From: Myxococcota bacterium
GTDB taxonomy: Bacteria; Myxococcota_A; Bradymonadia; UBA4248
NCBI GenBank assembly: GCA_045599245.1
Contig: JAZRVP010000077.1
Location: 17,691-81,690, forward strand
Direction of reading: 5' to 3'
Length of the DNA stretch: 64,000 nucleotides
Positions 1,308 to 61,521 of this stretch are shown piece after piece (positions within the stretch are counted from its first letter, which is position 1; each line of letters begins with the position of its first letter). The translations under genes were made by a program, and so were the position numbers. Under the pieces are notes generated by a model that did not search any database, had not been told where the DNA came from, and saw only the letters and a list, made by a program, of their open reading frames with translations.

Positions 1308-3983
1308 TTAGCCGAAGCTGTCGCATTCCTCAACGGGTCTGCATTGAAAATCATCGGGATCGCCATCAGAGGACGGGCAGAATGCATAGTCGAGCAGTGG
1401 GCATTGGCAATACCAGTTATCCATTTCGTCAGAATACCTGCATTCGCCTTTTCCATTTTTGGTTGTAGAGCGAGTACAATCCATCCAGCGGTTGACATCT
1501 GGTGAGAAATAACAAGATTTATCGGCTGCAGACCTTGGGATACAGACGTCGTTGTAGCAAATGCCATCGATAAGCTGGTGGTCAGAACATGTTTCACCTG
1601 GATTTCCGAAACAGGGAACGACGTCGTAGTATTCGATGACATTATCGGGGGAAAGAAGTGCCGTATAGCCATCGCGAAGAACGCATTGGGCCGAATAGTC
1701 GGGCGCACCTTTGGACATGCACTGCTGGATGCATGAATCCTTTGCAATACATCTGTCCATACATTGTTGTTTAATGACTTCAGGAGCGACAGGGTTATCA
1801 GGCTCGCCCGGTGTGTCAGGCTCGCCCGGTGTGTCGGGAACAACCGGTGTGTCAGGCTCGACCGGTGTGTCGGTGGCTGTTGCCGGTTCTGGTTCACAAT
1901 CCTTAGTGCAGTAATCGGTGTCGCACTGAGCCATGCATTTGTTCAGAAGGCATGATTTATATTTAGAAAAATAAACGGCTTCGCCTTCGATATCGCGACT
2001 GATTAAATCCCAGAAAAGCATGTCGGCTTCGGAAAGAATTTCATCGGGGATAGTGTCGTTGTCTTCGTCGATGATGTCTTGTGCTTCAGAGGGCCGATTG
2101 TTTTCAATGCATTGCGGGGAGGTCGGCGTAGCTATGGTTTCGCATGTGTAGTATAGTTCATTGCAATACGATTCTGTATCGTTGCATTGTTCGGTCGTGT
2201 TAGGGATGCAATACGATTCAAGGCCAGTGTTGAGGATGTGATAACTCGTTTTTGAACTGTTTTTACAAGCAGTTACTCGGCAGAATTGATTTTCGCATGT
2301 TCCGTTAAGCCAATGAGGATCGCGTTCTTTGCAGTTTGTGAAATCTCCGCCGCATGAGGCCGGATGGTTGGTTGCCTGACACAAACCGAGGGCATGATTG
2401 AGGGAGAAAGGCCCGGTTTGCTGAGGGCATGATGTTTTGACGCACTGTCCTTCGGGATTACACTGAAAAATGGGGCTAATATATTGAATTCCATCAGGAT
2501 TATTAATGAGTTCTGGCGGAATTTCTTCCGTAAGCTGAGTGCAGTTGATGACTTCACCGCCAATGGTATCCGCGCAGGCCGTGTCGGAATTTGGAACACA
2601 GGTTTTATTATCCAAATGAAATCCTGGTCTGCATTGTGAGATTATGCATTGATTATTTTTGCAAAGAGCGGAAACACCGTGGAATTTGTCGTAGCAGTTG
2701 ATGCATGAAGGACCGCATGCGGAAGGTGAATAATCGATACAGGAGCCATCACTGGCTGGACACTGAGATGATTCGGAACAAAGATTGTCGATGCATTCGC
2801 CATTTTGACAGATTTGAGGCGGGGTGCATCGATTAGGAATTTCTGAAGCGGTGGTTTCGTCAATTTGATTTGGGCCGCAATGGTCAGGGTCATTGGATGA
2901 AGTGTCCGGCAGGCAGAAGAGTGTTCCTGAACTGACTTCCGTGAAACCTTCACTGCATTTGTAGGCACATTGTCCATTGTTGCAGCTCATGAGGACACCC
3001 TGTCTTTGGGGAAGAATACACGAATGACCGCATTGACCGCAGTTGAGAAGGTCAGAAGAAAGATCGGTGCAGATTGGGGAATCATCTTTGAGGCAGGTGG
3101 CGAAGGTGTTGAGAGAGGGATCGATCTTGGTCAAACTGTTCTGGCAGTGTGAAATACAATGACCGTTATAGCATGAGCTGTTTTCTTCACAGATTTCACC
3201 GGCATAATTTTCATCATTGGGATCATTGCTGTTGCAGGCGCCGGATGCACCGCAGAAATTTGGGTCTGAGAGAGGAAAAATGCAGGAACCGTTGCAATTG
3301 ATCATATCTTCAGCGCAGAGACATTCGCCATCGTCGCAGATTTCATGTTTCCTGCATTTATCCCCCTGGTAGTTTTTTCCCGGATTTTTATCGGAACATG
3401 ATCCGGCTGCGCCGCAATGTGTGAGAGATGTTTCGGGATTGATACATTTTCCCTCACATTCAATCCAGTCTTCCGGGCAAGGTTGACTGCATCCAAAGAT
3501 GAAGTATTCGGAATCGTCAGGATTTGTTTGGAATGTACACAGAGGGAAAGATTTGGGACAAAGTCCGTTGCTTTGGGCGGTTTCTGAAATGCGATCAAGG
3601 GGCTGTTCTGTCAATTTGTTATTGGCATCGGGATCGGCATCTCCGATAAACTGAATTTCAGGCGGGAAAGGAAGATTGCCTGTAAAGAGATCGGGCATAG
3701 AACGGTAAATTTGACAAAACTGCAGGTCGGAACGCCATTGAGCGGAAAGATTTTCAGCATCATTCACTTCATGGATATCGTCATCGAGTTTGCAGTCAAA
3801 TGACTCGAGTTTGATGATGTACTGATCCTCGTTTTCAGTATCTGGAATACGTTTACCAGGGGGACATGGGATGGTACCGTTGTCGGTTACAAAATTGTCG
3901 TCAAAAAACGAATCCTGTGAACATGCATTTGCCAAAGAAGTGAAGCTGATAATGAGAGCATAGATAACTAATGAACGTTTCAT
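1308..3983 (-). CDS. secreted cysteine-rich multi-repeat protein (EGF-like Cys modules, DTPGEP linker)
   Basis: Start re-assigned to MKRSLVIYALIISFTSLANA|C, an SPI-type signal peptide. The track start at 4061 adds an unlikely 26 aa. More than 90 Cys in repeated CxxGxC / CxNGxC modules. A (D-T-P-G/V-E-P)n linker. No catalytic motif recognised. Confidence 0.8.
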   Translation of the reverse strand: MKRSLVIYALIISFTSLANACSQDSFFDDNFVTDNGTIPCPPGKRIPDTENEDQYIIKLESFDCKLDDDIHEVNDAENLSAQWRSDLQFCQIYRSMPDLFTGNLPFPPEIQFIGDADPDANNKLTEQPLDRISETAQSNGLCPKSFPLCTFQTNPDDSEYFIFGCSQPCPEDWIECEGKCINPETSLTHCGAAGSCSDKNPGKNYQGDKCRKHEICDDGECLCAEDMINCNGSCIFPLSDPNFCGASGACNSNDPNDENYAGEICEENSSCYNGHCISHCQNSLTKIDPSLNTFATCLKDDSPICTDLSSDLLNCGQCGHSCILPQRQGVLMSCNNGQCAYKCSEGFTEVSSGTLFCLPDTSSNDPDHCGPNQIDETTASEIPNRCTPPQICQNGECIDNLCSESSQCPASDGSCIDYSPSACGPSCINCYDKFHGVSALCKNNQCIISQCRPGFHLDNKTCVPNSDTACADTIGGEVINCTQLTEEIPPELINNPDGIQYISPIFQCNPEGQCVKTSCPQQTGPFSLNHALGLCQATNHPASCGGDFTNCKERDPHWLNGTCENQFCRVTACKNSSKTSYHILNTGLESYCIPNTTEQCNDTESYCNELYYTCETIATPTSPQCIENNRPSEAQDIIDEDNDTIPDEILSEADMLFWDLISRDIEGEAVYFSKYKSCLLNKCMAQCDTDYCTKDCEPEPATATDTPVEPDTPVVPDTPGEPDTPGEPDNPVAPEVIKQQCMDRCIAKDSCIQQCMSKGAPDYSAQCVLRDGYTALLSPDNVIEYYDVVPCFGNPGETCSDHQLIDGICYNDVCIPRSAADKSCYFSPDVNRWMDCTRSTTKNGKGECRYSDEMDNWYCQCPLLDYAFCPSSDGDPDDFQCRPVEECDSFG
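1795..1880. repeat. in-frame tandem repeat (about 15-18 nt unit, encodes DTPGEP/DTPVVP) inside CDS 1308-3983
   Basis: ggctcgcccggtgtgtca-type units repeated about 5 times on the plus strand. Confidence 0.7.
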
Positions 3984-4261
3984 TTCAAAGTCAGATTGAG
4001 ATGCGTTAAATATGTGCAATTGTATGCACCAGACGAAATATAATATACCACACACACACATATTACGACAATAAGCCGAAGCACTATCTGTTTGATCTGC
4101 TTTGAGAATTGAAGTGTCGAATAACGTGAACAGGTAAAACTATCAAGGAATAGTGAAAATTGGGGGATATTCTGAATAAAAAGGATTTTAAGACAGTGAA
4201 TGATGAAAGCTGTGAGGGACGGCGGGTGATGCTGAGATCCGAGGGGACCCTGCGAGATTAA

Positions 4262-5861: not shown

Positions 5862-5984
5862 GTTTTTTCAATAGAAGAGAGAGGGGGATGGAGCATAAAG
5901 ACGGGATTAAGCATCGGCCTGAAATTTTACAATTATTCATGATGGTTGGCAATTGTCTAAGGGGGGCCGGGCGTGTATGCGCGC

Positions 5985-7502: not shown

Positions 7503-7884
7503 AGAGGAATGCGACCTCGGAACGGCCTTGAATACGGGTGAATACGGCGGTTGTGACTCCGAATGCAAGCGTATGCCGTACTGCGGTGATGGCATCGTGA
7601 CGGATCCCGAAGTCTGTGATGATGGCGTCAATGACGGCAGCTATGGCGGATGTGCGAAGAGCTGCATGAGTCTCGGCGGATACTGCGGCGACGAAAAAGT
7701 CCAGAAAGAGGCTGGAGAGGAGTGCGATTATGGCACCGGAAACAACGACGAAACGTATGGCGGATGCACGACATCCTGCAAATTCGGACCGTTCTGTGGT
7801 GACGGCATCGTCAACGGCAGTGAAGAATGCGATTACAAGAGTTCTGAAGCGTGTTCCCAAACCTGCCGAACCCTCGTCAATTAA
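7498..7884 (+). pseudogene. orphan fragment of a DUF4215 (Myxococcus-type Cys-rich repeat) protein, probable gene remnant
   Basis: The frame opens at a stop codon inside the aminotransferase stop region and begins mid-repeat (..EECDLG..). TTG is the only candidate start. No signal peptide. Three CGDGIV..(E)CDDG../YGGC..SC repeats. Confidence 0.45.
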
Positions 7885-8188: not shown

Positions 8189-9031
8189 TTACATGCCGGC
8201 GGCTTCCTCCAGCATGCTCATGATGGATTCGACGTCGAACGTGCCCTGTACTTTGCGGCCATTGAGAAAAAATGTGGGCGTCGATTCGACCTGGTTTGTC
8301 AGGCCTTCTTTTTTAGAGAAAACAACGGCGTTTCTTATGCCTGCATCCTGCATGAGAGCTGCAAATTTTTCAGTATCGAGCTGAAGGTCCTTGGCAATTG
8401 AGGCACTCAATTCCGGCGTGAAACTGTCAAAATTCTCATACAGTTTGAGCAGGAATGGCCAGGCATTATCGAGTTTTGCTGCGGCTTCTATTGCAAGGGC
8501 CGCCTGCGTGGAATTTTCATGCTGCTTGATGGGGAAAAGCCGGAGATTAATCGCAACTTTTTCTTTAAGCGGAGAGGTTTCAAGTGCCTGAATGAGCGCC
8601 GGCACATGCCTTGAGCAGTATGGACATCGTCCACAAAGATAGACTGAAAGAACGACTTTTGCGTCTTTGTTTCCCCAGAGATGATCTTTCTGAATGGCAA
8701 TTTTGGCAGGCGGTGTCACGGCAGTCATCGTCATTGCTCTCTGATCGAGGATATGACGGATTTCAGTAGAGGATTTTCCGGCCTTGGCAAGACGGCATGT
8801 TTCATCGGCAAGACGAACCGCGAGCTTGCATTCCGGAGCCTGGGAGAGACATTTTGCGATGGTGTCGTCACAGCAGTCATAGAGATAGGCTGCATTCATA
8901 ACATCTTTGGAAACGGCAGCTGATTTTTCATCAAGTGAGTTGCACAGCGGCGTTTGAGCCAGGGCCAGAGATGGCATAAGCGAAAGAAACAGGATAGGAA
9001 TGAGTTTCAGTTTCAACATATTCATCCTCAA
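8189..9031 (-). CDS. DsbA-family thiol:disulfide oxidoreductase (thioredoxin fold) with N-terminal Cys-rich domain, secreted
   Basis: Signal peptide ending SLALA|Q. CGRCPYC active-site region within a thioredoxin-like C-terminal half. The start overlaps the upstream gene's stop by 4 nt, indicating translational coupling. Confidence 0.7.
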   Translation of the reverse strand: MRMNMLKLKLIPILFLSLMPSLALAQTPLCNSLDEKSAAVSKDVMNAAYLYDCCDDTIAKCLSQAPECKLAVRLADETCRLAKAGKSSTEIRHILDQRAMTMTAVTPPAKIAIQKDHLWGNKDAKVVLSVYLCGRCPYCSRHVPALIQALETSPLKEKVAINLRLFPIKQHENSTQAALAIEAAAKLDNAWPFLLKLYENFDSFTPELSASIAKDLQLDTEKFAALMQDAGIRNAVVFSKKEGLTNQVESTPTFFLNGRKVQGTFDVESIMSMLEEAAGM

Positions 9032-11514
9032 TTTTGCAGACAGGAAGACGATCGCTGCATGTCTTCATCTTGTTTGATAATGTCCCGAATGCGTTCCGTA
9101 TTCTCTTCGGTGTCAAAATTCCATGGAATAGAGAAGGCGTTATCTTTAACCGATTTGGGCCCATAAAAAGAAAGTGCCCCAGTCCATTTAACGGAAATCA
9201 TGCCTCGATAATCCACAAAATCGTAATCATCGGCGGTTGACCATCGGCGGCTTGCTTTAAACTGAGCACCTACGCGGACGCCAGCCCACGAGGGAGACCA
9301 GACCTGGAAGGTGCCGCGAGCGGCATAATCCCTTCTGGCTGCGTCCTGTTCAAAATAGCCTTTTGAATCGGCATAGTCATCCAGGGAGAATGAACCATTG
9401 AGCCGGAATAAAATATCGTGTGACGGAATGCGATAGTCGAGTGCCAGACTCAGATTAATGCCGTTGAGATCGTACATATCGCCGGTAGAGAACCAATGAC
9501 GGTAGGTTGCACCCCAGGTCAGGGCAAAACCGAGCCCGAGGGGATGTCTGGCACCGGCTCCAATATCAAACTCATCGCGAGTGCGAACCATTTGTCGAAA
9601 TGTTCTATGTCCATATCCCGTGAAAATATAGAGCCATTTCAGAATTTCAAAATCGAGTTCGATGCGATGACTCAGATAAAACTGAACCGGACCTTTGTTA
9701 TATTTGTCACCGCCGTCAAGAATGAGGGATTCAGGACGATACCAAGCACTGAACTTTAGCGAATCGGAATCGATTTGAGCACCGAGCCGCATGGATAAAT
9801 CGATATAGCTGGCTGTTTTGGTATCTTCAGAGGTGAGATATTCTCCTGTAAACTGGCCTTCGAGAACGGGTCGTGCAAAAGCATCTTTCCATGGATCGAG
9901 TGTAAATCGAATGTCTCCGTCAATAAACGGGCTGTCCAGGTCTTTGCCATTGAGGCTGGGATCGCTCGGAGAGCCACTCATGGCATTGGAGGCATAACCG
10001 CCGTCGAGCTGAATTTTCCAGCTTAAATTGGGGGCTGATTGGATGCCGAGCGTAGTCTGCATGGATTCAAGCGCCTTGAGATCGCTCTTCGTCATGGCCT
10101 CCTGATGAGCGGCATTATCAATGGCACTTTGTGCTTCTTTTTTTTTATTGTTTGTCATGCTTGCCATGGCATCAAGCAACTGCATCCTGGCTTGTAGTGC
10201 CGATGATTCACATGTTTTTTGTGAAGCAATGGTTTGTTTTGCTTCGTCAGGCATTGCCATTTGGATTTGAATCCATGCCATCCATGCTGTCGTTTCGCAA
10301 TCGTCGGGATATTGTGCATTGAGTTGGGCGAGTGTTCTTAAAGCCCAGGGATAGTTTTCCATTCTGGCGTAAGCAATGCCGAGTGCTCTGGTCAAATCCT
10401 GGTTTGGGGCATTGCAGGCTTTTGCCGCTTTGAGCAAATCAATGGCATCCCTTTGTGAGTCAGGATAATCCCAGAGTGAGCTGGCTGTAGAAATGGCTTC
10501 CTGCGGTTCAAGGCAGGGTTCATTGGTCGAATTTGAAGAAAAATCATGAGAAAAATCACTTGCCGTATCGGAACTTGCATCGAGCCAGGCGAGCAAAATT
10601 TCATCATTTCCTTGATTTAAGAGGAGATGAGCTTGTGGTTTTTCATCGTTGTTGTCAGCTTCATCGACTTCAACTTCAACAATAGAACCATTGGCACAGC
10701 ATCTAAAGCCAAGCGCGGCTGGTGTCCATGTCATCGGAACGTATGAACACTTGTGATTGTTTTCCGAGTCACTGCAGTTGTATGCGCCGCCGCGAACCGT
10801 CATGCCGGAACCACCGGCTGTATGCTCCCAGACATTGCCGCTCATATCGAAGACGTTCCAGCCGTTGTGGCAATCAGAAAATGAGCCTGTTGGCATGAGA
10901 TGAAAGCCGGGGTAGGGATAGGTGTCCAGGCCGTTGCAGATGACTGGATTGTATTTGTCGCCATAACCATAGACTGTATTGTTTACGCCGTGACAGGCAT
11001 ATTCCCATTCGGCAGGGGAACAGAGGCGTTTTCCTGCAGCTGCACAGGCTTTTTCCGCCTTTTCATTGTTGTCACCGATTAACCATGGCATGACGCCTTT
11101 TTGAGAAACGGCGCGAGTTTCCTGATAACCGGCAGTTGTCTCGTCGGCATCCGGTCTGGAGGCTTCATACATATCGATACAGTAGGCGTCCGAAATTGGA
11201 CTCATGTCATCCGGACATACAAACTTTTCGACGAAAACGGGGTCATGGTCTTTAGTCGGATCATCGACGGGGTCTTTGGTCGGATCATCGACGGGATCGT
11301 CAGGAATAAGTTTTTTAATTGTGCAAACGTGATCGATACAAGCGAAGCTTGTTCCGCAATCGGTGTCGAAGTGACATTTGTAATCGCATTCACCGTAAGC
11401 ATTGCATATTAAGGGAGCGGCGCAATCATCGTCGCGATAACAGCGTTGTTCCGGTGCACAGGCGTAGAGCAAAAGGGAAGATGCAATAAGCGTAAAAATG
11501 AACTGATTTTTCAT
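9028..11514 (-). CDS. secreted FGE-sulfatase-domain (SUMF1/DUF323-like) protein fused to TPR-like and C-terminal beta-barrel-like regions
   Basis: Start re-assigned to MKNQFIF..LLLYA|CA, a signal peptide. N-terminal Cys-rich module. 'GSFSDCHNGWNVFDMSGNVWEHT..RGGAY' matches the conserved FGE-sulfatase core. Helical repeat region. The C-terminal approximately 300 aa show alternating amphipathic beta-strand character and end in ..IPWNF. Confidence 0.7.
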   Translation of the reverse strand: MKNQFIFTLIASSLLLYACAPEQRCYRDDDCAAPLICNAYGECDYKCHFDTDCGTSFACIDHVCTIKKLIPDDPVDDPTKDPVDDPTKDHDPVFVEKFVCPDDMSPISDAYCIDMYEASRPDADETTAGYQETRAVSQKGVMPWLIGDNNEKAEKACAAAGKRLCSPAEWEYACHGVNNTVYGYGDKYNPVICNGLDTYPYPGFHLMPTGSFSDCHNGWNVFDMSGNVWEHTAGGSGMTVRGGAYNCSDSENNHKCSYVPMTWTPAALGFRCCANGSIVEVEVDEADNNDEKPQAHLLLNQGNDEILLAWLDASSDTASDFSHDFSSNSTNEPCLEPQEAISTASSLWDYPDSQRDAIDLLKAAKACNAPNQDLTRALGIAYARMENYPWALRTLAQLNAQYPDDCETTAWMAWIQIQMAMPDEAKQTIASQKTCESSALQARMQLLDAMASMTNNKKKEAQSAIDNAAHQEAMTKSDLKALESMQTTLGIQSAPNLSWKIQLDGGYASNAMSGSPSDPSLNGKDLDSPFIDGDIRFTLDPWKDAFARPVLEGQFTGEYLTSEDTKTASYIDLSMRLGAQIDSDSLKFSAWYRPESLILDGGDKYNKGPVQFYLSHRIELDFEILKWLYIFTGYGHRTFRQMVRTRDEFDIGAGARHPLGLGFALTWGATYRHWFSTGDMYDLNGINLSLALDYRIPSHDILFRLNGSFSLDDYADSKGYFEQDAARRDYAARGTFQVWSPSWAGVRVGAQFKASRRWSTADDYDFVDYRGMISVKWTGALSFYGPKSVKDNAFSIPWNFDTEENTERIRDIIKQDEDMQRSSSCLQN

Positions 11515-11524: not shown

Positions 11525-12559
11525 TCAGTTTTCGATGGCATCGATCATTGTATTGATGAGTTTTTTGTAGTCGTCACTGCGGACTTTAAGCCCCCCGCCA
11601 CCGCCGTTTTTTGATGCGGAGTAGATGCCCAAATACTCGTTAATGTCACTGTCTGTGATGGAATATCCGCGTTTTTTGAGTATATTTTTGAGTCCGTTCA
11701 AGTCAGTTTCACCGGGGAAAAGGACGGAAAGCAGGGCGTGAGTCACCGTCCAGTGGTGTCTGACAACGAGCATATAAGCGAGCATTGCGCCGGTTCTGTC
11801 GCCGCCATGATCGCAATGGATATAGGTAGAAGCTGGCGAGAATTTGAGTGCTGATTTATAAAATCGCGAGGGTTTGGGGAATTTTCCGCCAAAAGGAATG
11901 ACGATATGCTCGATGCCGAGTTCCTCCATACGTTTATTTGCGGCAAGCATTTCGTCTGTTTTTCGTGTTGCAGTGATGATGAGACGAATTCTTTTGGCAT
12001 ACAGGGCGTCGATATTCTGGACGTGAGGCACACTGCCAATCCAGTAACCTTCTTTGACTTGTCTTGCGTTTTTGGGCAGTCCGCCCGGAAAAATTCTGGG
12101 AGGAATGATGCCGTGAGCTGAAGCAATGACAGCGCCATGAATAGAAGCGTCACGAACCGATGAAAGAGATAATGCGCTATCCTGAACAGTGACGGATGGT
12201 GCATTGGGTGTTGAGTTATTGTCAGAGACGGTTTCGGTTTGAGACGAAACATCTGTCATTTCGATGGTATCATTTTGAGCCGTTTCATCGTCAGAAACGG
12301 GCTTGATTTCAGTCTCATCAGCTTGTGATGTTTTGTCAAAAAGTGAGCTGAGTGAGGCAATCGCAGATTTGTCTTCTTCGTTTAGTTCCGGGGTGGGAAC
12401 TGTATCCGATGAATGATTGACAGAAACACCGAGAGTTGATGAAGCGGTATCCTGAACGACGGTTTGTGCATCGGGGGATGAAATATGTGCCGTCATGCAG
12501 GCTGAACAAAACCATGGAACAGCCAGAAGAGGCGATAAAGACTTAAACAACAGCTTCAT
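11525..12559 (-). CDS. secreted Y_phosphatase3-type protein tyrosine/dual-specificity phosphatase with Ser/Thr-rich linker
   Basis: Start re-assigned to MKLLFKSLSPLLAVPWFCSAC, a signal peptide. CX5R P-loop 'IHCDHGGDRTG'. About 150-aa S/T/D-rich low-complexity linker. 10-nt gap to the downstream FGE gene. Confidence 0.7.
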   Translation of the reverse strand: MKLLFKSLSPLLAVPWFCSACMTAHISSPDAQTVVQDTASSTLGVSVNHSSDTVPTPELNEEDKSAIASLSSLFDKTSQADETEIKPVSDDETAQNDTIEMTDVSSQTETVSDNNSTPNAPSVTVQDSALSLSSVRDASIHGAVIASAHGIIPPRIFPGGLPKNARQVKEGYWIGSVPHVQNIDALYAKRIRLIITATRKTDEMLAANKRMEELGIEHIVIPFGGKFPKPSRFYKSALKFSPASTYIHCDHGGDRTGAMLAYMLVVRHHWTVTHALLSVLFPGETDLNGLKNILKKRGYSITDSDINEYLGIYSASKNGGGGGLKVRSDDYKKLINTMIDAIEN

Positions 12560-35917: not shown

Positions 35918-35938
35918 ACACGAGAGGCAGTCAGAGGG

Positions 35939-37096: not shown

Positions 37097-37106
37097 AGTA
37101 GTAAGT

Positions 37107-44639: not shown

Positions 44640-44690
44640 ACTGTCGTCTGAATTGGATTCATTCAGACGGCATCATTTTTGAGTGTTTCA
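44640..44690 (+). terminator. terminator-like hairpin
   Basis: gtcgtctgaattggattcattcagacggc followed by atcattttt. Confidence 0.5.
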
Positions 44691-44736
44691 AGTCTTTTTC
44701 TGCGTCTCTCATCACTTTTTTCACGGAGATTTACAC

Positions 44737-51999: not shown

Positions 52000-54900
52000 T
52001 TATTTTTCGAAGCCATAAACTCTGATGTCATCGAAGCGAAGCATCTTGTAGGCATCGGCATTGTCACTGCTTCCTTTAGCCGCTGTCGGCCAGAATTTGA
52101 ATTTGGTAAATGCCCGTCCGGTTGTTTTGAATTCAACGGATTTGGTTACCCATTCGCCTTCGGGAGCAATCAGTGAAGACTCCTCTTTGACGTCGATTGA
52201 TTTCGGGCCGTCATCAATTGTTCGATAATTGATGACACGACCGTCGCCATAGACTTTGGCTTCCACCTTGGTGATTTCATAATTTCGATTGCTCGTAGAA
52301 TTGCTAATCATGAACAGGCAGTTCGTTTCTGAGCCACTGACCACCTTTGTTCCCACTGCGTTGAGAGCACTGTCGGAACCGGCCACGAGTTTAACCGGAT
52401 ACTTGGGACAATCATAAATCAAAGCAAAGTCACTCTGTTTTATGCCGGCTTTGGCTATGATGTTGGAACTGAGGTCAGAATTCAGTCCTTCGTCATCTGC
52501 CGTTGTTCCATTCCAGTATGAACCGAAATCCCATTCTGCAAGAATGACTGAAACAGGTTCCGGCTTGGATTCATCCTTTCCGGAACTGTCGACACATGAA
52601 GTGAGTTCGCTGTTCATGACACAGGCAGGGAGATCGCATTTGCCGTCACAGGCTTGTTTAACCTGCTCTTTGATGCATTCGCTCCGTTCTTTGCTGCCGC
52701 AGATCGTATTAAGTGCCGCTATGAAATGCTCGTCTTCGATCGAAGACGGAACTGAGTCGTCATCGGAAATAAGTCCATTTTTGTCGCAGACAAAAATGGT
52801 CGGGTTGTCTTTACATGCCGGAATGTTGCACGCCGTTTCAAGACACTTACTGTTGGTGATTCCTTCGCCGTTGTTGATGATTTCTTCTTTGTTGGCTTGA
52901 CAGTCGGACGGATTACCCTGTTTGCGGCAGGCTTCATTGGCGGCTTTGATAATCTGTGATGCGCTGGAACCTGAATATAGACTGTTGACGGCGCCTTTTC
53001 CATTGACTTTGGTGCAGACAACGATCGAAGTCTTGTCCAGACATTCAGGCTTTTCACAGGCTGTTCCTGAGGTTCCCTTGGCAATGTTGCTGTATGCCCC
53101 CAGGAGACATGCTTTATTTGACTTGTATTCTGAGAGGCTGCTCTTGAGATTTTGCATACAGATGCTGTTTTCAGCCTTGTATTCGTCAAGAGATTTCGTC
53201 CCGAATTTCATCTCCGGCTCTTCTGCACCATCGGTATATCCGATCCAGACACCATTGATCTTGCCATTATCTGACTTGCCATCGGCCTTTGTCGCGCCAA
53301 GATTGCCTGTTCCTTCCCATTTGCCGCCCTGAATGACAGAGGCTTGACAGGCAATCTTGGTTTTGTCCGGAAGACATGTATTTCCTTTGGCAAATTCGCC
53401 TGTTCCCTGAAGTTTAGCACTCAAAGGAATCGTACCCTTGTCTGAAAGATCGGCAGTATAATCACCGAGTTTTCCAAGGGCCGTACGACAAATTCCCTTC
53501 AAAAGATCGGAGCTGACGCTCGTTATACCAAGATTGATATCGCTGTCGAATATCTTGTCGCAATCAATGCCTTTGGTCAGGTCAACCTTTCCGGTCTTCA
53601 AATCCAGGGCGCCAATGAATTTGCCAAGAATCTGATACAGGAATTTGCCATAAGTGAAGTTGATGGTGAAATCGGAAATCGAAAGCTGTGTGCCATTCGT
53701 GACCTTGGCTTCTTTCCATTTGCCTTCGATAACGGTTCCTTCGAGATCGATTGCTGTGTCTCCAACATAAGGAATCATGGCTCCTGAATATCGGGCACTT
53801 CCTACGTATTTTCCGTCTTTTTCTTCCAAAGACATTTTTCCGACCAGTGTTACAAACTGAAGGCCGTCAAAGACTTCACATAATTTGCTCTGAAGAGCGT
53901 CCGGACTCAAATATTTGTTGATGAGACTTTTGAGTAGCTTTTGCGCCAGCGGTGCCAGCTTTTTGCCTATCGAATTGACAGCAGTCCAGTAATAAAGATC
54001 GGCACACATGCAGTTGCAGTTGGTATAAAATGCCTTATCGTTTTCTTTGACACTGCTGTCACTCCAGTCACTGCACGAACTGATGTGCGTCAGTTTGCCG
54101 CTATTGTTTTTATACCGACATTTTTCCGGATTTTTGTCATAAAAGAACGTGATACAATCATCTGCATCGGGGGTTCCAGTATCTTTGCCTGTATAAACTA
54201 TCGATTTGGTCAAGGTATCGATAATCTTATCGCCTGGGTTGGTACCGACAAATTTGGCATAAGTATCCGTCAGCTTTTGCAATGCCTGACCGATTTCCGA
54301 GTCATTGCCCATCAAAGGTCCGAGATTGACCATCGTTTTGGTATTGTACAGGGGCTGAATGACCGTCGGTATTTCGCTCAAAGACACGGTTGAAACCAGT
54401 TCACGAACGGGTTTGCAGGTCTTTTTCTCCGTTCCATCCTTGTCAATTTTAAACGTTGCGTTGTCGTCGTCACATTCCTTGGGAACTGTTGATGAACTGA
54501 AGCTGATGTATGGCTCGCAGCCGTATGCAACTGGCGAGTTGCCTTTGTTGGCAATAGCAAAAATCGTATATTTGTCTGCAGTTGGGGCGGTTGCTGTCGC
54601 CTTGTAAGAATCTTCTTTTTTGCTCCCCGTCAGGTTGCAGAAGTTTTTGCCGCCCGTGGTCGTTTTATATTCGCCACAGGCTTCCTGGCGCGCGTCTTTT
54701 TCTGCCAAAAAGAACTTTTCTGAGCAGTCATAGAGATCAGCCGGAAGGGCATAATAGCTCACGGAATCAAACTCAATCTTAGGGATGTTTGATGTGTTGG
54801 CCTTGAGCGTAATATTGTTCACATCAGAGCTTTCTGTTTTGTCATCCAGTGTGCCTTTGACGTTCACCATGATGCTCTTGGGAACCATGTGTCCATCTTT

Positions 54901-57873
54901 ATGAATATTGGGATACATGGCATTGATTCTGTAAGTTGTTGCCTTCGAACCGGTCTTGAAAAGTACGTTGGCATATCCATTTTTGTCAGACCCTGAACTT
55001 GAGCTAAGCAGGGCGCCATCGGCGTCTTTATTTCCATCGAGTGTCCAGTAAATCGTGTCTCGGATCGGGGTCACTTCGGAACCGTTTCTCCACACGAGAC
55101 GGACTTTGACTGAAATTGTGTATCCGACACCCGTCTGGATGACATCTTCGCCCTCGAAAATGAGTTCCAGACAGCCCTGTTTTTTGTCGGCGTTCATCTG
55201 CATCGATGGACAGCAGGCGGGTACCTCGCCGCCCTCCTGGCTGCATTTGGCTTTGTCTGATGCATTGCAACTGCATTCGCGTTCATCGCAGCCGACACCT
55301 TGCGGATATTTGGGGTTGGTCGCTTTGCCATCGACCTGCTTGAGATTGCCTTCGCAGTTGCCCTCGCAAACTGTTCCGTCTTCCTGGATGGTATCGCCCT
55401 CGGGACGACTTGGATCAGCCGGCAGATCACTCTCAAGCGCCCCCGTGTCATTCGTCGTTGTGATCTGGAAAACAAAGGGTTTTGGCTTGTTTTCTTCATC
55501 CAGATAATTGGGATGGAACACGCTGACAAAGTAAACGGAATCGTAGCCTGTGCCTGTATAAAATGCATCACTCGCCACACCTTTGCTATTCGTCATGGCT
55601 GTTGACGCGGTTAGGGTCGCATTGTTGTTCACGGATTTGCCGCGCGTGACTTTCCACCAGGTTTTGGTATCGGGTACGAGCGTCTTGCTCTTGTTATCTT
55701 TACGTACAAGAACCTGAAGATTCAGTGTTTTGACTACGGGCGAGGTGATTGTTGCCGAACCTGAGGCTACGGACAAGGTCACTTTGCCGATATCGGGAAT
55801 ATAGGGCTCTATGTCGGCTGGCGGCGTGTATATCGACGGATCATCCGGATCGGCCTTGTCGCCTTTGGCTGTCGGGATCGATATCGAATTGATAATGCGC
55901 AGTGGAATGAGAACAGGCTTCGTTTCATCTGCTGTCGTTTCGAGATAATACAGGGCATCGTATCCAGTCCCAGCCCAGGCTTCGATATTATATATTTTTT
56001 TGCTCGCTGATATCTTGACGCTTTCTACCAGCTTGCCATTTTCGTCCTTGAGCATGGCATTATTGGTCGCCAGGGCTCCTCGCTGAATCTCAACCTGGAT
56101 CTCGCCATCTGCGTTTTCCTTGCCGTTGTTATCCAGCTTTTTCACATAAATCGTGACATCTTCATCCAGCTTTGCACTGACCGTCGAGCACGTTCGGAAT
56201 GTTTTTTTATTGTCCGTGCTGCAGACAAATGAATATTTCGCTTTTTTACATATATCTTTATATTTTGAATACAAACAGGGGTCTGGGGCAACTTCGACTT
56301 TTCCGTCATAATTGATGTCATAACCCTGGAAATAGGTATTGCCTTCACTATCTTCGCCCATGACGAGACGGATCGGATCGTTCGTTTTGTCATCGTTGAT
56401 ATCCGTCATCAGCTGTTTGCCTTCGCAGGACTGAACGGACCATGTCTTGTCACTGTTCTGAACCATCTTGCAGCGGAACGAATCGGCACTGCAGCTGTCT
56501 TTGCCGCTGCATTTGTCCATATCGCCGCACTGATCTTCGATGGAAATCTTTACCTTGTCGTCATCTGAATAGAAAATACCCTTGAGAACTTTGGCGGCAG
56601 CACAGCCCGAGAGTTCATTTCGACCGTCAGCGTTCGGTTTGGCTTCGCTCAGATCTGTCTTCAGGGCGTCGTCCGAGAGCAAGGCTTCATCGCCCGGATC
56701 TCCCAGAGTATCGGGCATCACAAACGTCCGGATGTCATACGTCAGAGGCGCCGCAACCTTGTGGAAAAAGTTGAGATAATATTTGGAATTATAGGTGCTG
56801 CTCGTGGATACTTCCGCCCAGAAAATTCCGTTAGAATCGGTCTTTCCGCAGCCCGTATTTTTTCCTCTTTTATTCTTCTTATCCGCGAACTGCTTGTTAT
56901 CCGTGTATTTTTTGTCGCTGTCTTGCGAGACGAAACCTTTGTTTTTTTCGCTCGTTTCGACAAATGTCCAGCATACGGTCTCATTGCCAACGCAGCTGTC
57001 ATCCGCTTCGTCTTCTGTGCTTTCGCCGTCTTCTGTGCTCGGTTCCTCGTCTTTTTTGCCCGGAGCTGTATCCGCACATTTGCCTGAGAGTTCGACGCGA
57101 AGTCTTTTCTCGTCATCGACAAAGAGCTGCTGGTCGAGTTCGTCCAAATTGGTGAATACTGCCGTCGAGAGTTTGGAATCCTTCAGTCCGTCGGGAACGG
57201 TCAGGTCATTGTCGACATCCAGCGTGCCTTCTTCATAACCGTCGCTCATTTGAGGCGGCTTTCGGACGATAATTTTCGCCTCCAGCGGCTGGGCATCTTC
57301 TTCGGCATCGGCATGCCACACATTCACGTAATACATCGGCGTCTTGCTGTTGTACGAGGTACCTGTCTGGACGCGGAATGTGAACGAGTAATCGGTTCTC
57401 GGTGTTATGACGGCGCGTGTTTCCGTCGGCGGGAACTTGTCGGCATCATACAGAGACTCGCTGTCAACGATAAGCGAACCGTTTGCGCCGGCTGCGCGTT
57501 CCAAAACTATGACAAACTGCGGTTTGTTGGCATGACGATCGGCTTCCGGTGATATTTCAACCGTAAATTCAATGATTTGATTGATAAATGTTTTCGCATT
57601 ATCCGGTTCTATGGACAGTTTCAGGTCATCATACTGCCCCTTCTCGCCAAGCATATCTTTGCTCGGTTTGGTTTTGGGGTTGTTGGCAAGTCCTTTGTTT
57701 TCCTTGCCAAAGACATTGTCTTCGTTATCCGTCGAAGTAGCATAATTGCCGCCCGCAATTTCTATCGAATCGCCGCTTGCACGTCTTTCAACGATTTCTT
57801 CCGTATTGGCACATCCTGCCACGCTTAAAATGCAGAGGTAAAGGGATGCTCGCGACAATGTCATTTTTTTCAT
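52000..57873 (-). CDS. giant lipoprotein paralog 2 (1957 aa) with C-terminal extension ending in WDF-domain
   Basis: MKKMTLSRASLYLCILSVAG|CANTEE with an AGGAGG RBS. Paralog of 46807-51513. It has an extra approximately 400 aa: Cys-rich modules plus a terminal approximately 190-aa domain starting 'VILAEWDFGS'. Confidence 0.8.
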   Translation of the reverse strand: MKKMTLSRASLYLCILSVAGCANTEEIVERRASGDSIEIAGGNYATSTDNEDNVFGKENKGLANNPKTKPSKDMLGEKGQYDDLKLSIEPDNAKTFINQIIEFTVEISPEADRHANKPQFVIVLERAAGANGSLIVDSESLYDADKFPPTETRAVITPRTDYSFTFRVQTGTSYNSKTPMYYVNVWHADAEEDAQPLEAKIIVRKPPQMSDGYEEGTLDVDNDLTVPDGLKDSKLSTAVFTNLDELDQQLFVDDEKRLRVELSGKCADTAPGKKDEEPSTEDGESTEDEADDSCVGNETVCWTFVETSEKNKGFVSQDSDKKYTDNKQFADKKNKRGKNTGCGKTDSNGIFWAEVSTSSTYNSKYYLNFFHKVAAPLTYDIRTFVMPDTLGDPGDEALLSDDALKTDLSEAKPNADGRNELSGCAAAKVLKGIFYSDDDKVKISIEDQCGDMDKCSGKDSCSADSFRCKMVQNSDKTWSVQSCEGKQLMTDINDDKTNDPIRLVMGEDSEGNTYFQGYDINYDGKVEVAPDPCLYSKYKDICKKAKYSFVCSTDNKKTFRTCSTVSAKLDEDVTIYVKKLDNNGKENADGEIQVEIQRGALATNNAMLKDENGKLVESVKISASKKIYNIEAWAGTGYDALYYLETTADETKPVLIPLRIINSISIPTAKGDKADPDDPSIYTPPADIEPYIPDIGKVTLSVASGSATITSPVVKTLNLQVLVRKDNKSKTLVPDTKTWWKVTRGKSVNNNATLTASTAMTNSKGVASDAFYTGTGYDSVYFVSVFHPNYLDEENKPKPFVFQITTTNDTGALESDLPADPSRPEGDTIQEDGTVCEGNCEGNLKQVDGKATNPKYPQGVGCDERECSCNASDKAKCSQEGGEVPACCPSMQMNADKKQGCLELIFEGEDVIQTGVGYTISVKVRLVWRNGSEVTPIRDTIYWTLDGNKDADGALLSSSSGSDKNGYANVLFKTGSKATTYRINAMYPNIHKDGHMVPKSIMVNVKGTLDDKTESSDVNNITLKANTSNIPKIEFDSVSYYALPADLYDCSEKFFLAEKDARQEACGEYKTTTGGKNFCNLTGSKKEDSYKATATAPTADKYTIFAIANKGNSPVAYGCEPYISFSSSTVPKECDDDNATFKIDKDGTEKKTCKPVRELVSTVSLSEIPTVIQPLYNTKTMVNLGPLMGNDSEIGQALQKLTDTYAKFVGTNPGDKIIDTLTKSIVYTGKDTGTPDADDCITFFYDKNPEKCRYKNNSGKLTHISSCSDWSDSSVKENDKAFYTNCNCMCADLYYWTAVNSIGKKLAPLAQKLLKSLINKYLSPDALQSKLCEVFDGLQFVTLVGKMSLEEKDGKYVGSARYSGAMIPYVGDTAIDLEGTVIEGKWKEAKVTNGTQLSISDFTINFTYGKFLYQILGKFIGALDLKTGKVDLTKGIDCDKIFDSDINLGITSVSSDLLKGICRTALGKLGDYTADLSDKGTIPLSAKLQGTGEFAKGNTCLPDKTKIACQASVIQGGKWEGTGNLGATKADGKSDNGKINGVWIGYTDGAEEPEMKFGTKSLDEYKAENSICMQNLKSSLSEYKSNKACLLGAYSNIAKGTSGTACEKPECLDKTSIVVCTKVNGKGAVNSLYSGSSASQIIKAANEACRKQGNPSDCQANKEEIINNGEGITNSKCLETACNIPACKDNPTIFVCDKNGLISDDDSVPSSIEDEHFIAALNTICGSKERSECIKEQVKQACDGKCDLPACVMNSELTSCVDSSGKDESKPEPVSVILAEWDFGSYWNGTTADDEGLNSDLSSNIIAKAGIKQSDFALIYDCPKYPVKLVAGSDSALNAVGTKVVSGSETNCLFMISNSTSNRNYEITKVEAKVYGDGRVINYRTIDDGPKSIDVKEESSLIAPEGEWVTKSVEFKTTGRAFTKFKFWPTAAKGSSDNADAYKMLRFDDIRVYGFEK

Positions 57874-58420: not shown

Positions 58421-58446
58421 CACTTCCCCCCGCTAAAATTCACACA

Positions 58447-61400
58447 TCAGTTCACATCGGTACGACACGTCGGCGAACAGCCGTCACCATCCAGATTGTT
58501 GCCGTCATCGCACTGTTCATCATGCGTGACCACGCCGTCTCCGCAGTGCGGTCCTCGCTTGCAGGCCGTCGTGCATCCGTCGTACAGGTCGTCGTTGTTC
58601 TTGCTGCCATTATCGCATTCCTCGCCGGCTGATATGACGCCGTCACCGCAGGATGTATGACAGTCCGATTTGCCCGTGTTCAAAAATCCGTCCAGCGTGA
58701 GCTGATACGTCGAACCCGGCCAGCAGCGTTCAGCCTGGAAGAAATGAAGCTCATAAATGCCGTTTTCGTAGATGTCATAGCGCGGATCGCACTTGGTGTC
58801 GAGCGTTTCCCCGTCAAGGACACAAAGAGAGTTGCTGAGCGTGTTCTGATCGGAATTGCCTGACTGCATGCCGCCAAGATCGACAAACAGCGTCTTGTTG
58901 ATAAATGCCCAAACGTCGTCATTTCCGCTGAATTTAAGCGTTTCACCGCCTTTGTACTGGAAATAGGTATGAAGCGCCGAGGTGAAATTGCCTTCGCTTT
59001 CTGCTCTGGGCGATGCGGTGCCTGAATGATAGCCCTGGCCGGCGATGGGCCCCCAGTTGTCAGCAAAAAAGGTGTATCGATCGTGATCATTCGGATCCTG
59101 CGTCATTCTCAGCTTCGTGTTGATCTGGATATTGACGCCGGGGGCATAGCGATACCAGTAATGGAATGTTCCGGCACAGCTGACATGCGAGGTAATAGCG
59201 ACGCCTGTGTTTCGGATGGTGCAGTTTTTGGAAGCCCAGTTCGGTACGAGAACCATCTTGCCATCGGCATCCAGGTGGTTTTCAACCATGCCGCCGCACC
59301 CGGATCCGCCAAATGTGCATCCAAAATCAGGGAAGCCTTTGCGCGTTGAACCTGAAATTGAACTTGAAAACGTCGAACGGCTTGCGCAAGAGGCATCGAC
59401 CGCCAGAATATTGTTATATATGGAGCGAGTCATAAAGCCGCCCGTTCCTTCATTGGAGGCATTCCATGAGGCGGGTTCTCCGGCAGTCGTCGTCTGTGAC
59501 GGATTTCTGAAATCATAGTACGAAATGTCCAGATCGATGGTCGGTGCACTTGCCATGTCTCTGAAGTCCGTGCAGACATAGCCCTGTTCGATTTCGCATC
59601 GTTTGGAGCAGCCGTCACCGCCGATGAGATTGCCGTCGTCACAGGCTTCGGCCGGAACAAAACCGAATTCGCAATTGTAATGGTCTTTTAAATCTTTTTC
59701 TGTCGTATAGGGGGCATTTTTGTCTTTGTCCGCCTCTGTTTTGCAGATCGTTTTACCGGCACTGTCACGTCGTGGAATCATCCAAAGCGTAATGCCGTCG
59801 CCGCATTTCGGGCTGTAGGTTACGATGCCGTCTTCATCGATGAATTCTGTGAACATGAGTTCGCGTTTGCAGCTCGGTGAGCAGCCGTCATTCGGGCTCT
59901 TGTTGCCGTCATCGCATTCCTCGCCCACATCCCTGTAGCCGTCGCGGCAGCGACCTTTCTGGCATTGGTAGACGCCGGCGATGATGCCGCAGTGATAGCC
60001 TGTTTCGATACGGCACTGGTTGCATCCTGAACCCACGATGTTTCTCGAATTGCCCGATGCATCCACACCAAGATCGCACTCTTCCCAGATGTTGAAATCC
60101 GTTTCACGGTCAATGATGCCGTTGCCACACAAACCAACGGAGGGAACGCAGGCTCCGCCGGGATTCGTGGGACATTTGAAATTGGCTTCGACCTGACACT
60201 GCGCCGAACAGCCGTCGCCAGGTGACCGGTTGCCGTCATCACAGGTTTCTCCATTCTGAACGATACTGTCACCGCATACACCTTTGGCTGGATCGCAAAC
60301 AGTCAGGCCGTTTTTAGCTGTCGTGCAGCGAAAACCGGTTTCGAGTTCGCACTGCGCCGAACAGCCATCTCCCGATACACTGTTGCCGTCATCGCACATC
60401 TCGCCGTAGGCCATGATGCCGTCACTGCAACTCTTCGCTGTGCAACGGTTTCCTGCAGTTGCACATTCATAACCCGGATCAATTTTGCCGTGGGTGCAGC
60501 CGTCATTGTCGATCGAATTGCCGTCATCGCATTCTTCGTAGCCATCTGGATCCACAATGCCATTTCCATAAGCGATGAGCATACAGGCCACATTCTGACT
60601 CTCACATTCTGTACAGGCATTGACCATAACCGTTGAAAAGATGCCGTTTTCGTCCGGCACTTCCTTCCCGACCATGTGCTGGCATTTGTAGCCTTCTTCA
60701 ATCTGGCATTCTGCAGTGCAGCCGTCGCCGGAGATTCTGTTGCCGTCATCACAATTTTCACCTCTGTCGAGATAGCCGTCTCCGCATGACAGCGGCATGC
60801 ACCACAATCCGTTCGTGCAGTCAAAACCTTCTTCGACTTCGGTGCAGTTCAGACATCCTTCGTTGTCGTTGGCAGAGCCGATGTCACATATTTCATGATC
60901 AGGATCGAGCTCATCGTCGCCGCAATGCGGTCCCAGCGTGCACGAGGTTGTGCAGCCATTATAAAGATAGTCGTCATTCTCATCCCCGTTGTCGCATTCC
61001 TCACCAAAAGCCTCATCGACATGTCCGTCACCGCAATAATGCGCAAAATGGCATGTGTCGTCACAACGCGGTTTTCCATTCGCATCAACGCCATATTTGG
61101 CCGGATTATCGGAATCGCATTGCTCGCCATTATCGAGTTTTCCGTCACCGCATTTCATCGACTGGCAGGTCATCTTCCTGTCTTCATCGATCGAACACCA
61201 AATCTGACCTTCTTCGGAGACCCACATCTCCTTTCCGTCGGATGCACTCTTGCGTTCAAAATCGTCAAAACTCCATTTGCATTTTGATGTGCAGCCATCT
61301 TCATTATCATCATTGCCATCGTCGCACTTTTCCCCCTTATCGACGATGCCGTTGCCGCATACACTTTTATCGTTATCTTTTTTCTTGCCCTTGTCGCCTT

Positions 61401-61521
61401 GCTCATCATCGGATCCGCTCTTATGAACCTTGAGCTCTAGTTGCTGGGAATCATCGTTGCATCCCACATAGCAAAGCAAACTAGCGCAAATCCACAACAA
61501 TCCTAACTTTGACTTTCTCAT
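58447..61521 (-). CDS. DUF4215 (Myxococcus-type Cys-rich repeat) protein with C-terminal fibro-slime/PA14-like domain, probable lipoprotein
   Basis: Start re-assigned to MRKSKLGLLWICASLLCYVG|CNDD with an AGGAGG RBS. At least 14 repeats of 'CGDG(I/V)xxxGE(E)CDDGNxxxGDGCSxxC'. The C-terminal approximately 300 aa, 'YTFFADNWGPIAGQGY..GNDDVWAFINKTLFVDLGG..ELHFFQAERCWPGSTYQLTL', match the fibro-slime (PA14-like) consensus. Confidence 0.8.
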   Translation of the reverse strand: MRKSKLGLLWICASLLCYVGCNDDSQQLELKVHKSGSDDEQGDKGKKKDNDKSVCGNGIVDKGEKCDDGNDDNEDGCTSKCKWSFDDFERKSASDGKEMWVSEEGQIWCSIDEDRKMTCQSMKCGDGKLDNGEQCDSDNPAKYGVDANGKPRCDDTCHFAHYCGDGHVDEAFGEECDNGDENDDYLYNGCTTSCTLGPHCGDDELDPDHEICDIGSANDNEGCLNCTEVEEGFDCTNGLWCMPLSCGDGYLDRGENCDDGNRISGDGCTAECQIEEGYKCQHMVGKEVPDENGIFSTVMVNACTECESQNVACMLIAYGNGIVDPDGYEECDDGNSIDNDGCTHGKIDPGYECATAGNRCTAKSCSDGIMAYGEMCDDGNSVSGDGCSAQCELETGFRCTTAKNGLTVCDPAKGVCGDSIVQNGETCDDGNRSPGDGCSAQCQVEANFKCPTNPGGACVPSVGLCGNGIIDRETDFNIWEECDLGVDASGNSRNIVGSGCNQCRIETGYHCGIIAGVYQCQKGRCRDGYRDVGEECDDGNKSPNDGCSPSCKRELMFTEFIDEDGIVTYSPKCGDGITLWMIPRRDSAGKTICKTEADKDKNAPYTTEKDLKDHYNCEFGFVPAEACDDGNLIGGDGCSKRCEIEQGYVCTDFRDMASAPTIDLDISYYDFRNPSQTTTAGEPASWNASNEGTGGFMTRSIYNNILAVDASCASRSTFSSSISGSTRKGFPDFGCTFGGSGCGGMVENHLDADGKMVLVPNWASKNCTIRNTGVAITSHVSCAGTFHYWYRYAPGVNIQINTKLRMTQDPNDHDRYTFFADNWGPIAGQGYHSGTASPRAESEGNFTSALHTYFQYKGGETLKFSGNDDVWAFINKTLFVDLGGMQSGNSDQNTLSNSLCVLDGETLDTKCDPRYDIYENGIYELHFFQAERCWPGSTYQLTLDGFLNTGKSDCHTSCGDGVISAGEECDNGSKNNDDLYDGCTTACKRGPHCGDGVVTHDEQCDDGNNLDGDGCSPTCRTDVN

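Follow-up and report, generated by a model that had tools for sequence, protein, structure and literature searches.

The window analysed here, the whole 64,000-nucleotide stretch at positions 17,691 to 81,690 of contig JAZRVP010000077.1, contains eight genes for secreted proteins, and four of these proteins are predicted lipoproteins carrying two acidic residues at positions +3 and +4 relative to the lipidated Cys (the residue directly after this Cys being +2). Comparison with homologues indicates that this acidic pair is under strong position-specific conservation and that the tag to which it belongs, C-[G/S/D/N]-D-[D/E], is found clade-wide on a subset of lipoproteins. Because the pair is conserved position-specifically in homologues, its reading as a signal similar to the lipoprotein export signal (LES) of Bacteroidota gains support. 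What appears to be new, with real support from the alignments, is a position-specifically conserved LES-like pair in a lineage for which no such signal is described in the literature searched. A first-pass annotation of this DNA had noticed the acidic residues and presented the genes as an island; the observation is largely right, and the island framing is wrong. The eight genes, hereafter named by their first coordinate, are as follows (aa, amino acids):

1308-3983, minus strand: 891-aa secreted protein; signal end LANAC/SQDSFFDD at 3909-3923
17914-21894, minus strand: 1326-aa lipoprotein; lipobox FAAC; tag C-GDD at 21823-21834; short tether
22485-23627, plus strand: 380-aa lipoprotein; lipobox FAGC; tag C-DDD at 22542-22553
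28479-32324, plus strand: 1281-aa lipoprotein; lipobox LTSC; tag C-GDD at 28548-28559
46807-51513, minus strand: 1568-aa lipoprotein; lipobox LFGC; C-ANTE at 51442-51456
52000-57873, minus strand: 1957-aa lipoprotein; lipobox VAGC; C-ANTEE at 57796-57813
58447-61521, minus strand: 1024-aa lipoprotein; lipobox YVGC; tag C-NDD at 61450-61461
61934-64000, minus strand: 3' part of a gene (688 codons) that runs off the window, its N-terminus lying outside the view

All eight open reading frames (ORFs) are present at these coordinates, as the annotation had announced with a total of about 28 kb; they sum to 27,369 bp, that is, 43% of the 64-kb window. The last one indeed runs off the window, and a DUF4215-like Cys repeat is present in the N-terminal portion that can be seen.

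Conservation of the acidic pair after the lipidated cysteine

Sequence-level prediction gave a clear lipobox in six of the eight genes, and in the tagged four each comes with a K/R n-region and a hydrophobic core. The signal of 1308 is ambiguous, LANAC being either a weak lipobox or an AxA signal-peptidase I site, and shows no acidic pair at +3/+4. The four acidic tags of the first-pass annotation could all be read directly from the sequence, namely C-GDD (17914), C-DDD (22485), C-GDD (28479) and C-NDD (58447). Counting the six clear cases, the ambiguous 1308 and three other genes, the window has ten lipoprotein candidates; DD at +3/+4 occurs in four of them (binomial P about 2e-6, with D at about 0.1), and the remaining six read C-ANTE, C-ANTEE, C-SQD (weak lipobox), C-APEQ, C-SRPV and C-MTAH. 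Note that a permissive operational LES rule (at least two acidic residues in six) is satisfied by five of the ten versus about 22% expected, which alone is unconvincing.

The homologues are far more informative as to position. Indeed, about 46 full-length lipoprotein homologues of 28479 (35-52% identity) were collected, and almost all of them read C-[G/S/D/N]-D-[D/E]; all position counts of this family were taken from 34 non-redundant N-termini. The +2 residue was G in 13, S in 13, D in 7 and N in 1, and acidic residues occupied +3 in 88% and +4 in 100% of the sequences; from +5 to +10, D/E fell to 0-6% versus a protein background of 14.7%. When the family was divided into eight clusters at 50% identity, with quite different signal peptides, +4 was acidic in all clusters and the full +3/+4 pair was present in all but one (members shown). 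In the alignment of 37 sequences (A2), the DD pair is the only non-Cys part of the consensus from the lipid Cys to the first module, and signal peptides and tethers diverge freely around the conserved tag.

The same motif is present outside this family. Orthologues of 17914 (58-64% identity) carry C-GGDD or C-GGEE, and relatives of 58447 carry GDD, SDD or EEE (e.g., C-GDD in P0211 at 72% identity and C-EEE in L008 at 35% identity). In addition, the tag is found on unrelated lipoproteins of the relatives, including a 900-aa Big_1 protein (GDD), a 669-aa MopE/Choice-anchor protein (GGDD), another 669-aa protein (GDD) and a Cys-rich 1037-aa protein (DED), which brings to about eight the unrelated families of large lipoproteins in the clade that have it. 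Among the 150 best DUF4215 representatives, of which only the lipoproteins were counted, the +3/+4 pair was present in 7 of 22 at ranks 1-50, in 2 of 19 at ranks 51-100 and in 0 of 20 at ranks 101-150. Since it fades to 0/20 in the distant DUF4215 lipoproteins, the tag is a property of the clade, and not of the repeat family or of acidic composition.

The resemblance to the LES proposed by the first-pass annotation thus proved closer than had been claimed, the acidic pair at +3/+4 occupying the very positions that are essential in SusG. Indeed, the LES of Bacteroides thetaiotaomicron SusG is CS(D/E)2, with Asp essential at +3 and +4 and Glu tolerated (PMC6222051), and 13 of the 34 members of the 28479 family read exactly C-S-D-[D/E].

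Architecture of the encoded proteins

The proteins share a layout made of a Sec signal with lipobox, a lipidated Cys, a short Ser/Gly-rich tether (in the 28479 family, 11-18 residues separate the lipid Cys from the first Cys module), a stalk of small disulfide-rich modules close to the membrane and Cys-poor domains beyond it. This arrangement of a proximal Cys stalk and a distal Cys-poor part is found in 28479, 17914 and the visible part of 61934. The distal domains comprise Ig-like arrays, a glycine-rich ALK-type domain, a fibro-slime/PA14 domain and an SGNH-like DUF4886 domain; their annotation suggests that the distal heads are of adhesin or binding type. In Fibrobacter, fibro-slime proteins are cell-surface and cellulose-binding (PMC4668043).

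The 28479 protein begins with ~330 aa of 20-26-aa four-Cys hairpin modules, followed by ~seven Cys-free beta-sandwich domains and a C-terminal ALK/LTK-type glycine-rich domain, the latter matching PF12810 over residues 1020-1279 (1.2e-27, 97.9 bits versus a gathering threshold of 24.5, profile positions 3-242 of 243). One homologue, P0136, is 100% identical to it. An AlphaFold2 (AF2) model of the orthologue P0169, built from the 37-sequence alignment, reached a predicted local distance difference test (pLDDT) of 82.5 and a predicted template-modelling score of 0.41, as expected for beads on a string. In this model, residues 1-35 (signal and tether) are disordered, residues ~40-250 form beta-hairpin Cys modules and residues 250-930 form ~seven beta-sandwich domains; the glycine-rich domain that follows is mostly coil with a pLDDT of about 90. 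A Foldseek search with the 1165-aa model returned only generic Ig-array matches (TM about 0.1). Tandem arrays of glycine-rich-domain lipoproteins also occur in a relative, with four paralogues in L016 (1796-18062) and five in L019 (2065-19617), all tagged; in L019, two prepilin-type (N_methyl) genes immediately precede the array on its upstream side.

The 58447 protein contains nine myxo-type Cys-rich acidic repeats (DUF4215/TIGR02232) that flank a fibro-slime/PA14-like domain. Its matches are clear for TIGR02232 (5.3e-99, 323.7 bits for a cut-off of 20.8, nine stretches), for DUF4215 (PF13948; 2.4e-52, 175.4 bits for a cut-off of 27) and, at residues 845-941, for Fibro_Slime (TIGR02148; 3.9e-15, 56.1 bits for a cut-off of 45), with an overlapping PA14 match below its cut-off. 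None of the other seven genes matches TIGR02232 or PF13948 above threshold; by BLASTP, the visible N-terminal repeat of 61934 and most of a small ORF at 7528-7884 match the 58447 repeats. In 61934, one DUF4215-like Cys repeat precedes a pair of DUF4886 (SGNH-like) domains and, at the C-terminal end, two repeated modules. The small ORF is probably the remnant of a duplicated gene:

7528-7884, plus strand: 118-aa ORF; 14 Cys; signal peptide absent; 55% identity with the DUF4215 repeats at the C-terminus of 58447-61521

The N-terminal 650 aa of 17914 consist of ~42-aa Cys/Trp modules and an acidic GDGDNT repeat, and its C-terminal 670 aa are Cys-poor without known domain. In the 22485 protein, a 102-bp tandem DNA repeat gives rise to five 34-aa four-Cys units, and a Cys-rich, helical-looking C-terminal half follows. 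Neither of the two has a Pfam or NCBIfam match, and 1308 has only a sub-threshold MXAN_6577-like match. The 46807 and 52000 proteins are paralogues (42% identity) with no recognisable Pfam/NCBIfam domain; orthologues of 52000 are found in L001 (31% identity, beside the Bat operon) and in L012/L013 (C-ANSEE). The orphan regions of 17914, 46807, 52000, 22485 and 1308 yielded no credible Pfam match at E<=1. As a separate observation, the 46807/52000 family comprises lipoproteins of 1568-2040 aa (including L001 1647-7709 and L012 2163-8285) in which C-A-N-[T/S]-E-E is kept, with C-ENGD in L001. A conserved 399-aa gene that is absent from the window precedes the giant gene in L001 and L012, and a 400-aa Imm33 gene of the window, considered as its counterpart, showed no correspondence with it.

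The first-pass annotation had described all eight proteins as dominated by Cys modules. This stands for five of them, with Cys throughout 1308 (9.5%), 22485 (9.2%) and 58447 (7.9%), and limited to the N-terminal 650 aa of 17914 (6.0%) and the N-terminal 330 aa of 28479 (4.6%). It falls for 46807 (2.6%) and 52000 (3.1%), where the Cys are scattered, and for 61934, with one Cys repeat at the visible N-terminus and three Cys in the last 625 aa. The Cys modules are of at least four unrelated types (17914, 22485, 28479 and 58447), and overall D+E in these proteins is 14-19%. The same annotation considered such dense repeats to be typical rather of eukaryotic matrix proteins; they are not rare in bacteria, where 58447 has relatives in 20,726 clusters at 50% identity (E<=1e-3). 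A C-terminal sorting domain of the type IX secretion system (T9SS) or MYXO-CTERM type was also considered for the giant proteins and rejected, with no Por_Secre_tail match and no terminal transmembrane helix.

Four in-frame tandem DNA repeats were observed: 33 bp x5.1 at 15519-15687 within a Ser/Thr kinase gene, 18 bp x7.6 (the GDGDNT run) at 20814-20950 within 17914, 102 bp x4.3 at 22617-23050 within 22485 and 78 bp x3.7 at 28656-28940 within 28479. Because the 102-bp and 78-bp repeats each encode whole Cys modules, they suggest a recent amplification of these modules in 22485 and 28479.

The DsbA-like protein and its partner gene

The window also encodes a DsbA-like protein whose gene is adjacent to a large lipoprotein gene:

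8189-9031, minus strand: DsbA-like periplasmic thiol-disulfide oxidoreductase with a signal-peptidase I type signal
9028-11514, minus strand: 828-aa lipoprotein, C-APEQRC at 11446-11460, upstream partner of the DsbA gene

Sequence and model both indicate that 8189-9031 is a bona fide DsbA-type protein. It matches PF13462 (7e-20) and PF01323, sequence matches were found in the PDB, and in an alignment of 52 homologues down to 39% identity (A1), CGRCPYC is invariant (C136-P-Y-C139), as is T251, with P252 of the cis-Pro loop nearly so. The extra Cys domain noticed in the first pass is also present, as an N-terminal helical domain of ~100 aa with six invariant Cys, kept in the 52 aligned homologues, between the signal peptide and the catalytic part with its CPYC. 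The AF2 model has a pLDDT of 93.3, with the N-terminal domain (residues 25-105) confidently modelled. By Foldseek, the best DsbA-type, BdbD and Staphylococcus aureus DsbA matches reach E 5e-9 to 1e-7, and those to ScsC are weaker (1e-7 to 1e-6); these matches cover the catalytic domain only, and no solved structure matches the N-terminal domain. The protein resembles DsbA, BdbD and ScsC in its thioredoxin fold with helical insertion, its CPYC, its cis-Pro loop and its signal peptide, but differs from them by the helical six-Cys N-terminal domain and by a third invariant Cys before the CxxC, which stands three residues before CPYC. In ScsC, the extra domain mediates oligomerisation, and the N-terminal domain found here could be an oligomerisation or substrate-binding module.

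The DsbA-like protein is a plausible oxidase of the Cys-rich proteins, with no specific tie to them. Its presentation as a DsbA embedded in an island is not sustained: it belongs to a widespread subfamily with 323 full-length homologues (one named as Thermoanaerobaculales), and its conserved neighbour at four other loci is the gene for a lipoprotein with an FGE domain. This pair, in which the stop of 9028-11514 overlaps the start of the DsbA-like gene, also occurs in L002 (7481-10843), L003 (7407-10831), L004 (1723-5171) and L007 (6478-10828). The lipoprotein has an N-terminal Cys module, an FGE-sulfatase-like domain and a weak TPR match, and its C-terminal region gave sub-threshold OMP_b-brl matches in all four copies tested (window and three orthologues). 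The TPR and barrel layout recalls Slam, both matches being weak, and DUF560 gave no match on 9028-11514 at E<=10.

Genomic context and host lineage

The eight ORFs are not contiguous, and other genes are interspersed among them:

Among the giant ORFs: MBL-fold lipoprotein, aminotransferase, Mur ligase, Ser/Thr kinase, HD protein, M20 peptidase, MutS2, FAD oxidoreductase, MscS, glycogen synthase, Imm33/DUF1266 protein and Ham1
11525-12559, minus strand: lipoprotein (C-MTAH); Ser/Thr/Asp-rich linker; C-terminal domain weakly resembling dual-specificity phosphatases (E about 2e-3, sub-threshold)
33904-42938: BatA-D/VWA operon, between giant ORFs
44683-45885, plus strand: 400-aa Imm33 (7.7e-24) and DUF1266 gene

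The Imm33 gene has the appearance of an orphan immunity gene, with no toxin gene nearby.

The giant lipoprotein genes are core genes of a lineage and do not form an island, because housekeeping genes are interspersed and synteny is conserved. The first-pass framing, taken as a genomic island gained by horizontal transfer that encodes secreted Cys-rich proteins and a DsbA of their own, is hardly credible to us. It could draw on the share of the window occupied by the eight genes and on a GC content that varies from 0.41 to 0.54 among 2-kb bins across the window; against it, however, stand the interspersed housekeeping genes, the absence of tRNA and of mobility genes from the window, and the pairing of the DsbA gene with the FGE-domain lipoprotein gene at four other loci whose other neighbours differ. 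Synteny is moreover kept in distant relatives: in L001, a metagenome-assembled genome (MAG) labelled 'uncultured Myxococcales bacterium', the giant-gene orthologue (31% identity) adjoins the Bat operon as in the window, and in L012/L013 the orthologue of the 52000-57873 type adjoins a glycine-rich lipoprotein gene. Thus none of the marks of a genomic island (contiguous accessory block, flanking mobility genes or tRNA, absence from relatives) was found. The contig scan returned one relative from genomes (L001) and three from metagenomes, two of the latter being high-GC organisms and uninformative. The window is best read as ordinary chromosome of an uncultured bacterium associated with the gut, with many very large lipoproteins encoded in its core genome.

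The host is very probably not a member of Bacteroidota, considering the labels of its relatives together with one indirect test, the usage of Shine-Dalgarno sites. The relatives are labelled 'uncultured Myxococcales bacterium' (L001), 'Bradymonadia bacterium' (P0148) and 'Proteobacteria bacterium', which are MAG labels and not a phylogeny; Bradymonadia is a class of Myxococcota. In the window, 14 of 30 genes have a Shine-Dalgarno motif ahead of them, versus a background of 9%, and Bacteroidota characteristically lack such motifs. The 'Proteobacteria bacterium' records have sample names like XIEF21-1_SAMN..., which we take to be a ruminant gastrointestinal MAG set, and Bradymonadales are named in excerpts of rumen and gut 16S papers. 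[quoted passage not shown]

Interpretation of the acidic tag

We give an even chance to the reading that the tagged proteins are lipid-anchored, combine the acidic tag with a tether, a disulfide stalk and distal binding domains, and are sorted to the cell surface by the tag. They would be exported by Sec and then lipidated on the Cys, their disulfides would be formed in the periplasm by a DsbA-type oxidoreductase, and they would be carried to the outer membrane, where the +3/+4 acidic pair would act as a sorting signal towards the cell surface or vesicles, analogous to the LES of Bacteroidota. Either an LES-like flip or type II secretion could serve as the export route. At the surface, these proteins may act as far-reaching adhesins or may bind prey, plant fibre or material of the host. 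This placement by the tag is suggested by sequence comparison and by analogy with the LES.

Several points weigh against surface sorting by the tag. It is missing from other giant or Cys-rich lipoproteins of the window and its relatives (C-ANTE(E), C-SQD, C-TLE and C-SEAE), and a hand tally of tag versus size over ~25 families (tagged, 7 large and 1 small; untagged, 9 and 8) was not significant, the lipoprotein sample being small and biased, with loci chosen around such genes. By MAG labels and Shine-Dalgarno usage, the organism is not a Bacteroidota, and Myxococcus xanthus, a studied member of the phylum, follows other rules, with +2 Lys directing lipoproteins to the inner membrane and +7 Ala to the matrix (FibA) (PMC3222651). 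The LES receptor or flippase is unidentified even in Bacteroidota (PMC12578637), and therefore there is no defined machinery to look for here. Finally, the proteins have 35-80 Cys that would form disulfides during periplasmic folding, which would fit type II secretion better than flipping.

The main rival reading, which we judge rather unlikely, is Lol avoidance: the acidic residues would keep the folded lipoprotein at the inner membrane for later transfer by type II secretion, in the manner of Klebsiella pullulanase (Asp+2) or Acinetobacter InvL. The end location would then be the same (the surface) and the route different. Type II secretion carries folded, disulfide-bonded proteins, and the tagged proteins, which must form many disulfides in the periplasm, would suit it as cargo; the five-gene array of L019 beside the two prepilin-type genes also agrees with this route. 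Asp is found at +2 in 21% of the 28479 family and in gene 22485, and Asp+2 is the retention signal of Escherichia coli, with a cited role in pullulanase secretion (PMC3222651). In addition, type II dependent surface lipoproteins are known (PMC12802150), and type II secretion genes occur in cultured Bradymonabacteria (PMC7460792). However, the constraint lies on +3/+4 and not on +2, where Gly and Ser prevail and would direct the protein to the outer membrane by the E. coli rule; an acidic retention signal at +3/+4 is undescribed in the literature searched, and no type II secretion gene lies within the window. Plain retention in the inner membrane, with the proteins acting in the periplasm, appears quite improbable. 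Acidic residues beside the lipid Cys do retain lipoproteins in E. coli, and DsbA substrates are periplasmic at least transiently, but +2 is rarely Asp here, and 1000-1300-aa stalks with ~seven Ig-like domains and adhesin-type heads would be far longer than the periplasm is wide.

The pair may also have no sorting role, either as a structural or ionic feature of the tether (repelling anionic lipids, binding Ca2+) or as a product of concerted evolution of 5' ends in paralogue arrays, which we consider improbable. Such an origin could be suspected from the acidity of the proteins as a whole (D+E of 14-19%), from the ~22% of random tethers of such composition that satisfy the permissive LES rule, and from the tandem arrays of four to five genes, within which signal peptides are alike. 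Composition cannot explain the pair, however, because D/E falls well below background at +5 to +10 (0-6%). Moreover, the pair is kept across eight clusters with unrelated signal peptides and in about eight unrelated families, and it is missing in distant DUF4215 lipoproteins of similar composition.

Surface sorting by the tag would have consequences beyond this window. That an LES-type tag, C-x-D-(D/E), directs lipoproteins to the surface outside Bacteroidota, in gut-associated Bradymonadia-like Myxococcota, is a tentative proposal from sequence that we hold to be possible though on the doubtful side. If it were true, the tag could go back to ancient machinery common to both lineages, to convergence or to transfer inside the gut, and the outer-membrane components that Bacteroidota have in common with this clade, and that Myxococcota without the tag lack, would offer a way in to the flippase. 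Indeed, Bacteroidota flip hundreds of lipoproteins by a known signal and an unidentified flippase (PMC12578637), and a remote second clade with a +3/+4 tag could show a general physical or mechanistic principle, or supply the contrast needed to find the machinery. By a simple rule on the sequence, the tag would also allow prediction of which proteins uncultured ruminant-gut relatives of contact-dependent predators place on their surface, including adhesins and possible prey- or fibre-binding proteins. If Lol avoidance were the mechanism, the pair would represent a new sorting rule for the phylum.

Comparison with known lipoprotein systems

The proteins of the window can be compared with several described systems. 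As in Klebsiella PulA and Acinetobacter InvL, they are large lipoproteins, there at the surface, with one or more acidic residues after the Cys; PulA depends on DsbA-type folding. The signal of PulA is nevertheless an Asp at +2, whereas here the constraint lies on +3/+4 and the window holds no type II secretion genes. With M. xanthus, the host shares the phylum by label, and lipoproteins of M. xanthus pass beyond the outer membrane by an unidentified route (PMC3222651); in contrast, the tagged proteins show no +7 Ala/+2 Lys pattern, and no acidic +3/+4 rule is reported for M. xanthus. The 58447 protein is a clear member of both the TIGR02232/DUF4215 repeat proteins and the fibro-slime proteins known from Fibrobacter, above the curated cut-offs, but the combination of a lipid anchor with the acidic tag is specific to the clade, and the other Cys modules of the window match no curated family.

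The closest likeness is with the LES of Bacteroidota, which takes several forms in addition to that of SusG: SDDDD in Bacteroides fragilis, SDDFE in Flavobacterium johnsoniae, and K-(D/E)2 or Q-A-(D/E)2 at the critical position in Capnocytophaga canimorsus (PMC5080379). In the literature searched, the term is treated as a signal of Bacteroidota, without link to Myxococcota or Bradymonadia. The two cases differ in lineage, the host being labelled Bradymonadia/Myxococcota, with Shine-Dalgarno sites, and very probably lying outside Bacteroidota; in the +2 position, where Gly is here as common as Ser; and in the cargo, which is here disulfide-rich, with no SusC/D-type partners seen and a tag known from sequence. 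They agree in the lipobox Cys, in the small or polar +2 residue and in the two acidic residues at +3/+4, found in the window proteins as in SusG, and in the presence of the tag on a subset of the lipoproteins, namely large ones with binding or hydrolase-type domains.

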